From NCBI RefSeq assembly GCF_054482595.1, contig NZ_CM137008.1: DNA of 64,000 nucleotides. One strand, given 5' to 3'. The stretch's first letter is position 1, and the number at the start of each line of letters is the position of its first letter. Below are positions 10,269 through 11,010 of the stretch, one piece after another. The notes beneath the pieces were generated by a model. That model saw only the letters and a list, made by a program, of their open reading frames with translations, searched no databases and had not been told where the DNA came from. A program made the position numbers and the translations under genes.

Positions 10269-11010
10269 TGCCGGATGCGGCGTGAACGCCTTATCCGACC
10301 TACGGTTCAGGCACAGGTTTGTAGGCCTGATAAGACGCGTAAGCGTCGCATCAGGCAATGGTGCTCGGATGCCGGATGCGGCGTAAACGCCTTATCCGGC
10401 CTACGGTTCAGGCACAGGTTTGTAGGCCTGATAAGACGCGTAAGCGTCGCATCAGGCAATGGTGCTCGGATGCCGGATGCAGCGTAAACGCCTTCTCCGG
10501 CCTACGGTTCAGGCACAGGTTTGTAGGCCTGATAAGACGCGTAAGCGTCGCATCAGGCAATGGTGCTCGGATGCCGGATGCGGCGTAAACGCCTTATCCG
10601 GCCTACGGTTCAGGCACAGGTTTGTAGGCCTGATAAGACGCGTAAGCGTCGCATCAGGCAATGGTGCTCGGATGCCGGATGCGGCGTAAACGCCTTCTCC
10701 GGCCTACGGTTCAGGCACAGGTTTGTAGGCCTGATAAGACGCGTAAGCGTCGCATCAGGCAATGGTGCTCGGATGCCGGATGCGGCGTGAACGCCTTATC
10801 CGACCTACGGTTCAGGCACAGGTTTGTAGGCCTGATAAGACGCGTAAGCGTCGCATCAGGCAATGGTGCTCGGATGCCGGATGCAGCGTAAACGCCTTCT
10901 CCGGCCTACGGTTCAGGCACAGGTTTGTAGGCCTGATAAGACGCGTAAGCGTCGCATCAGGCAATGGTGCTCGGATGCCGGATGCGGCGTGAACGCCTTA
11001 TCCGGCCTAC
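10269..11010. repeat. Tandem REP/BIME array: about 7 copies of a 101-bp unit (Y-type REP + spacer + inverted Z-type REP) plus a terminal REP
   Basis: Unit tgccggatgcggcgtaaacgccttatccggcctac-ggttcaggcacaggtt-tgtaggcctgataagacgcgtaagcgtcgcatcaggca-atggtgctcgga repeats with exact 101-bp period; point variants between copies. Confidence 0.95.

Follow-up and report, generated by a model that had tools for sequence, protein, structure and literature searches.

BIMEs are classified here by the nomenclature of Gilson, Bachellier and Hofnung, as summarised by Ton-Hoang et al. (2012). In that work a BIME-2 consists of a Y and a Z2 REP in inverse orientation, separated by short linkers (S between the tails; s, l or r between the heads) and present in tandem copies, the number of which varies at a given locus from strain to strain (PMC3333891). 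In a BIME-1 the Y REP is paired with a Z1 REP, the two being separated by a long L linker that carries an IHF site, and the element is found in single copy (PMC3333891). DNA gyrase cleaves BIME-2 elements preferentially, mainly in the Y REPs and independently of transcription (PMC6379681), and a BIME-2 acts as a topological barrier which limits the diffusion of supercoils (PMC10592627). The RNAs of one array, REP325, are reported to bind HU and to help in condensing the nucleoid (Qian et al., 2015; PMC4550694).

The window analysed here is a 64-kb stretch of E. coli DNA, in which an earlier note, made from the sequence alone, had described a tandem repeat between copA and ybaQ. We are confident that this repeat belongs to the BIME-2 class and forms a non-coding cluster, between convergent genes, in which Y and inverted Z2 REPs alternate. 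Strain-to-strain length polymorphism of BIME-2 elements is a known phenomenon, of which the copA–ybaQ locus is a clean, quantified example, and the current understanding of REP elements is unchanged by it. The typing as BIME-2, the figures for its rarity, the reconstruction of unit gain and loss, the match to naRNA4 and the frameshift in ybaQ are additions to the earlier description.

Structure of the copA–ybaQ array

Tandem Repeats Finder (TRF) identified a head-to-tail array with a period of 101 bp at 10269–11011 (7.4 copies, 97% matches, zero indels, score 1416), which is within 1 bp of the 10269–11010 given previously. The spacer between the copA stop (10212) and the ybaQ stop (11033) is 820 bp in length and the array accounts for 743 bp of it, in good agreement with the earlier figures of 820 and about 740 bp. 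Cutting the sequence every 101 bp from position 10269 yielded seven full units and the first 36 nt of an eighth, downstream of which the sequence is unique up to the ybaQ stop codon. Each unit contains a Y palindrome, TGCCGGATGCGGCGTAAACGCCTTATCCGGCCTAC (35 nt), and an inverted Z palindrome, GTAGGCCTGATAAGACGCGTAAGCGTCGCATCAGGCA (37 nt). The orientation alternates along the array, the eight Y units lying on the plus strand and the seven Z2 units on the minus strand. The locations of these and the neighbouring features are shown in Table 1.

Table 1. Features of the copA–ybaQ region, in positions of the window
Feature	Position	Strand	Evidence or remark
copA	7708..10212	+	NCBIfam NF007952 CopA, 1744.7 bits, full length; RefSeq annotation in relatives
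Predicted GC-rich stem-loop, 14 nt past the copA stop codon	10226..10251	+	Centroid RNA fold
Array, very probably BIME-2; seven full 101-bp units and terminal Y palindrome	10269..11011		TRF and unit-by-unit listing
Y-type REP, first of eight, 35 nt each	10269..10303	+	Regex inventory, identity to Y reference, variant strings, predicted hairpins
Remaining Y-type REPs (starts)	10370, 10471, 10572, 10673, 10774, 10875, 10976	+	
Tail-to-tail linker GGTTCAGGCACAGGTTT, 17 nt	10304..10320		Recurs every 101 bp, invariant within the window array
Z2-type REP, inverted, first of seven, 37 nt	10321..10357	-	Regex inventory, identity to Z2
Remaining Z2-type REPs (starts)	10422, 10523, 10624, 10725, 10826, 10927	-	All seven copies identical
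Head-to-head linker ATGGTGCTCGGA, 12 nt	10358..10369		Recurs every 101 bp, invariant
Z2–linker–Y segments matching RF02564, 78 nt each (whole span 10324..11007)	10324–10401, 10425–10502, 10526–10603, 10627–10704, 10728–10805, 10829–10906, 10930–11007	-	
ybaQ (HigA-family antitoxin-like HTH gene), convergent with copA	11033..11375	-	TIGR02607 HigA match for the remaining 97-aa ORF

An inventory of REP-type palindromes in the whole 64-kb window, made with a flexible regular expression, returned 18, of which 15 belong to the array. The palindromes found elsewhere comprise a single head-to-head pair of degenerate units (18066–18149) and a solitary Y (29601–29634).

Classification of the array as BIME-2

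The units were compared with the references for Y, Z1 and Z2 given by Durrant et al. (2024; PMC11208160). One of the Y variants of the array (variant b, below) was identical to the published Y at all 35 positions. The Z unit matched Z2 at 34 of 36 positions, both mismatches being located in the loop, and alignment to Z1 required seven gapped positions. The earlier note had recognised a Y-type and an inverted Z-type REP in each unit, and this composition can now be specified as Y and Z2. The two alternate in inverse orientation, are separated by linkers of 17 and 12 nt and are repeated as tandem, polymorphic pairs which lie outside genes, between two convergent transcription units. The combination of Y with Z2, short linkers and tandem repetition identifies the element, very probably, as a BIME-2. 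No structural difference from described BIME-2 elements was found, and the copA allele of the window is merely long for its locus, with seven units as against two in K-12 and 0–2 in most strains.

Other assignments fit less well. The array resembles BIME-1 (RIP/RIB elements) in being made of REPs and in possessing a Y unit. However, BIME-1 has the shorter Z1 and a long L linker with an IHF site and occurs in single copy, whereas the window array has Z2, short linkers and tandem units. The IHF consensus WATCAANNNNTTR had no match inside the array, and this, together with the Z2 type and the tandem repetition, rules out BIME-1. The earlier note had also listed IHF binding among the properties of such clusters; this is a property of the BIME-1 L linker (PMC3333891) and does not apply here, being ruled out by the missing consensus site and by the class of BIME. 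A CRISPR array was rejected, as there are no unique spacers: whatever separates the palindromes is repeated as well, and without variation. As in the REPtron, in which a tnpA-REP/RAYT gene is flanked by BIMEs, the units are substrates of the kind recognised by TnpA-REP, with a tetranucleotide (GTAG/CTAC) and, in Y, a mismatch in the stem, but no transposase gene is present in or beside the copA–ybaQ array. The K-12 RefSeq record examined carries no curated REP features, and a literature search for a BIME together with copA and ybaQ returned only unrelated matches.

By its position the 17-nt linker GGTTCAGGCACAGGTTT would correspond to the S linker of BIME-2. The same 17-mer was detected in Escherichia sp. 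MOD1-EC7003, the sole exact match when one genome per species was searched, within a BIME of 95-bp period (4739–4974 of the compared region) at another locus, downstream of a wzc-like gene. Its occurrence at a second locus in another Escherichia species indicates that GGTTCAGGCACAGGTTT is a shared BIME motif and is not specific to the copA locus.

Variation between units

The sequence differences between copies quoted in the earlier note are real. They fall in four variable columns of the unit (11, 16, 25 and 30), all within the Y palindrome, and no difference was seen among the seven units of the window in the Z2 palindrome or in either linker. Y variants were named by their bases at these four columns (a, GGAA; b, GAAG; c, AACG; d, GACG; e, GGAG), and their order along the array is given in Table 2. 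Three of the four variable positions are located in the stem and weaken the predicted hairpin, which has a calculated energy of −21.3 kcal/mol for variants b and e and of −13.9 to −17.5 kcal/mol for a, c and d. These stem-weakening variants raise the possibility that several units of the array may be poorer protein targets than the Y consensus. In K-12 and BL21 the last unit carries one linker change and one Z2 change, unlike the window, where Z2 and linkers are invariant.

Table 2. Y variants in order along the array in individual E. coli genomes
Genome	Y variants of the full units	Closing Y
Window and XH990	a b c b d a c	e
2824	a b d a c	e
TUM18780	a c	e
DETEC-C31	a c c	e
THO-010		e
ATCC 8739	b b g c c c c c	e
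PapM-32-1	f f f b d	e
D8	a b c f b d b c	e

Copy number across E. coli

To compare copy number, 5,426 complete genomes were queried with both unique flanks joined, the span of each match giving the length of the spacer. Spacer lengths fell on a series of 113 + 101k bp, and the arrays that were read covered values of k from 0 to 8. This bears out the earlier expectation that copy number at this locus would vary between strains. Three evenly spaced samples of the ranking were pooled, giving 158 genomes with ybaQ. No BIME was present in 42 of these, which have a 57-bp spacer and include strains of B2 type (EC958, Nissle 1917 and ST95-32, for example). The terminal Y only (k = 0) was found in 48, one unit in 32, two units in 29 (K-12 among them) and three units in five (BL21 among them), while k = 5 and k = 7 were each represented by one genome. 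The BIME is absent at copA–ybaQ, therefore, in approximately one-quarter of the sampled genomes having both genes, and approximately 30% have the terminal Y alone.

Long spacers were counted by means of the joining rule of the search, by which two matched pieces are joined only if the distance between them does not exceed 500 bp plus half the length of the query. The flanks were reported separately in 85 genomes at a limit of 600 bp, in 43 at 800 bp and in 23 at 1500 bp. These counts imply that approximately 62 genomes carry at least five units, equivalent to 1.3% of the genomes in which both flanks occur (roughly 4,790), and that approximately 20 (0.4%) carry at least seven units or a small insertion. 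By length, the seven-unit allele is among roughly the longest 1% in E. coli genomes. The linker junction, queried alone, was matched in 2,194 genomes (median one, maximum nine per genome); these counts are a lower bound, as the variant second unit of K-12 is missed by the 28-mer seed.

The array is missing in many lineages, for example in B2-type strains, and is therefore dispensable, which argues against an essential role. It could be used as a small VNTR-like marker. B2-type strains with the 57-bp spacer keep a RelE/ParE-family toxin gene upstream of ybaQ, and BIME-bearing lineages are without the toxin gene. In PKF11 and GN25 ybaQ is missing altogether.

Gain and loss of units

Thirteen genomes with 99.9% identical flanks carried seven units in nine cases, two units in two, three in one and none in one. 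Tandem repeats are prone to mis-assembly, and repeat collapse could lie behind some of the copy-number differences among genomes described as complete. We give next to no credence to an assembly artefact as the source of the long array itself, since the 820-bp spacer was present in eight independent complete genomes from varied hosts and countries (819 bp in a ninth) and the array of XH990 is base-for-base the same as that of the window.

The order of the Y variants along the arrays records a history of deletion and duplication between near-identical genomes (Table 2). The TUM18780 allele is the window array after loss of everything between its two a units, and that of DETEC-C31 is the TUM18780 allele with c duplicated. 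Similarly, the allele of 2824 is the window array minus the two units between its two b units. The lineages of ATCC 8739, PapM-32-1 and D8, in which the composition differs, represent independent expansions. The order of the variants shows the shorter alleles to be descended from longer ones, which lost whatever lay between two units of identical sequence, and shows that units are also duplicated locally.

Copy number would then be likely to shift through unequal homologous recombination or replication slippage between units, and the variant order across strains fits the same two processes as they had been put forward in the earlier note. TnpA-REP may be an alternative or additional agent, and is considered here in view of its activity on single-stranded BIMEs, which it can cut and join again in vitro. 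Both Y and Z2 REPs are bound by the enzyme, which cleaves at C^T sites in iREPs and linkers and by strand transfer assembles multiple REPs in vitro (PMC3333891), and every change observed at copA–ybaQ involves whole BIME units. Whole-unit changes are, however, equally to be expected from homology-driven events in an array of 97% identical 101-bp units. Moreover, the deletion end-points lie in identical Y-variant units (a...a, b...b), as homology predicts, and no RAYT gene adjoins the array, its neighbours being copA and ybaQ. We consider it unlikely, on these grounds, that TnpA-REP/RAYT has been the main driver of copy-number change, rather than RecA-type unequal crossover or slippage.

Open reading frames within the array

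Six ORFs of 76 aa had been reported across the array, with starts at 10358, 10459, 10560, 10661, 10762 and 10863. All six starts are present, the ATG being located in the head-to-head linker (GCAATGGTG), and the frames stop at a TAA in the Y loop 2.3 units past the start, giving an open frame of 231 nt (76 aa). The length given did not hold for the last of them, the ORF at 10863, which is 134 aa long because its frame exits the array antisense to ybaQ. Neither do the ORFs constitute one frame running through successive copies, as had been stated. As 101 = 3 × 33 + 2, they rotate through the three frames (start frames in order 2, 1, 0, 2, 1, 0), and they overlap one another.

The array ORFs are repeat artefacts and not genes, as the earlier note had maintained. 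An ATG start and a 231-nt open frame are what each ORF has in common with a real small-protein gene, and the same proposal might be made for the opposite-strand ORFs of 50 aa. But the ORFs run over one and the same sequence in each of the three frames, there was no match to an NCBIfam family and the sole Pfam hit was below threshold (E = 0.074), so that a single conserved frame with homologues was not found. PGAP placed no CDS in the copA–ybaQ spacer of the ten array-bearing RefSeq genomes examined, and the ORFs are absent from the many strains without full units. That these frames encode real small proteins is hardly believable in view of this evidence. In annotation, ORF calls across the array should give way to a label for a REP/BIME-2 repeat.

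Similarity to naRNA4 and REP325

All seven Z2–linker–Y segments of the array (Table 1) matched the Rfam family RF02564 (naRNA4), for which the gathering score is 59.5 bits, on the minus strand with 79.4–89.3 bits. On the plus strand the threshold was exceeded by three of the segments (63.6–64.3 bits). RF02564, a model built on the REP325 array of K-12, additionally matched the isolated single BIME at 18069–18146 with 69 bits, again above the gathering score. The model therefore recognises head-to-head Y/Z2 pairs generally rather than a specific gene, and Rfam hits to naRNA4 will be triggered wherever the present array is annotated.

REP325 itself lies at another locus, the yjdM–yjdN intergenic region of K-12, and has 5.8 copies of a 100-bp unit with an identical Y, a Z2 which differs by one loop base and a tail-to-tail linker that is also 17 nt in length. 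Its linkers are GGAGGGTGCGGGAATTT (17 nt) and GTCGGCACCGT (11 nt), as compared with GGTTCAGGCACAGGTTT (17 nt) and ATGGTGCTCGGA (12 nt) in the copA array, so that the l linker and the locus of REP325 units are not those of the copA array. Transcription, HU binding and a role in the nucleoid have been reported for REP325 only.

It is conceivable that the units of the copA–ybaQ array are small RNA genes of the naRNA4 kind, functional as a cluster, the products of which would bind HU and bridge cruciforms as reported for REP325. Transcripts entering the array from ybaQ (minus strand) or from copA (plus strand) would then be processed into two-hairpin RNAs of about 78 nt. Such a reading draws on the seven minus-strand and three plus-strand matches and on the Y/Z2 architecture and similar period shared with REP325; furthermore, approximately 80% of REPs are reported to be transcribed, and any RNA with two such hairpins may serve (PMC4550694). 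Against this, RF02564 also hits the unrelated single BIME mentioned above, and the inter-hairpin linker differs from that of REP325 in both sequence and length (12 versus 11 nt). A promoter scan of 10100–11600 gave one promoter-like site as compared with 1.2 expected, no more than chance, and more than half of the sampled genomes have either no array or a single Y. We therefore regard a small RNA gene cluster of this type as distinctly improbable.

Possible roles of the array

By transfer from other BIME-2 elements, the Y palindromes at copA–ybaQ would be preferred binding and cleavage sites for DNA gyrase. As such sites, they could enable the array to absorb or insulate the positive supercoils which arise where the copA and ybaQ transcription units converge. 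Neither gene is mentioned in the portion of the supplementary text of the gyrase Topo-seq paper (PMC6379681) that was searched. At the RNA level, the palindromes would be expected to fold into stable hairpins, which could shield the 3' ends of copA and ybaQ transcripts from exonucleases or attenuate read-through. The predicted folding of the array RNA was much more stable than that of shuffled controls, with z-scores of −7.5 (plus strand) and −5.2 (minus strand). No intrinsic terminator was found by a terminator scan of 10100–11600. Our best inference, by analogy with described elements, is that the array would serve as a gyrase-binding, supercoil-buffering and RNA-hairpin-forming spacer between convergent genes.

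A more far-reaching proposal is that the locus is a fast-changing 'tuning' locus, of which the long alleles have been selected in particular lineages and are not neutral. If this were true, unit number (from 0 to about 9) should measurably alter supercoil insulation, the stability of the copA and ybaQ 3' ends or the supply of naRNA4-like HU-binding RNA. We judge selection of this kind to be very unlikely.

Neighbouring genes and other features

The gene upstream of the array is copA, the transcript of which would read into the repeat. The stem-loop predicted between the copA stop codon and the first Y (10226–10251) has no U-tract, and the same sequence is found in the 57-bp spacer of the BIME-less strains ST95-32 and PKF11. 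A weak, sub-threshold match to Rfam naRNA4 over 10222–10300 suggests that this stem-loop might be a decayed REP.

Alignment of the convergent gene, which bears the name ybaQ in RefSeq relatives, to K-12 ybaQ demonstrated a +1 insertion of an A near 11320 (TATGAAT-ATCT to TATGAATAATCT), which makes ybaQ a frameshifted pseudogene in the lineage of the window and leaves an ORF of 97 aa from an internal ATG. PGAP has flagged ybaQ as 'frameshifted' in XH990, TUM18780, DETEC-C31 and THO-010 also.

IS621 is a bridge-RNA recombinase element of the IS110 family. In E. coli UTAK-1 a copy of IS621 was found inside a Z2 unit of the copA–ybaQ array (about 1610–2990 of the compared region), inserted at GTAG^GCCTGAT. 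This site is the published natural target of IS621, ATCAGGCCTAC, read on the other strand (target sequence from PMC11208160). The array of the window contains seven exact ATCAGGCCTAC targets on the minus strand, one per Z2 unit, and is by virtue of these sites a natural landing pad for IS621.

Elsewhere in the window, Rfam sroB (the ChiX small RNA) was matched with 82 bits at 12306–12389 on the minus strand. This match lies between ybaP and ybaK, in agreement with the K-12 annotation. Matches at gathering level were also obtained for the dnaX frameshift element (26173–26237, minus strand), the small SRP (4.5S) RNA (43040–43136, minus strand) and sraA (60776–60871, plus strand), all three of which are expected features of this region in E. 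coli.
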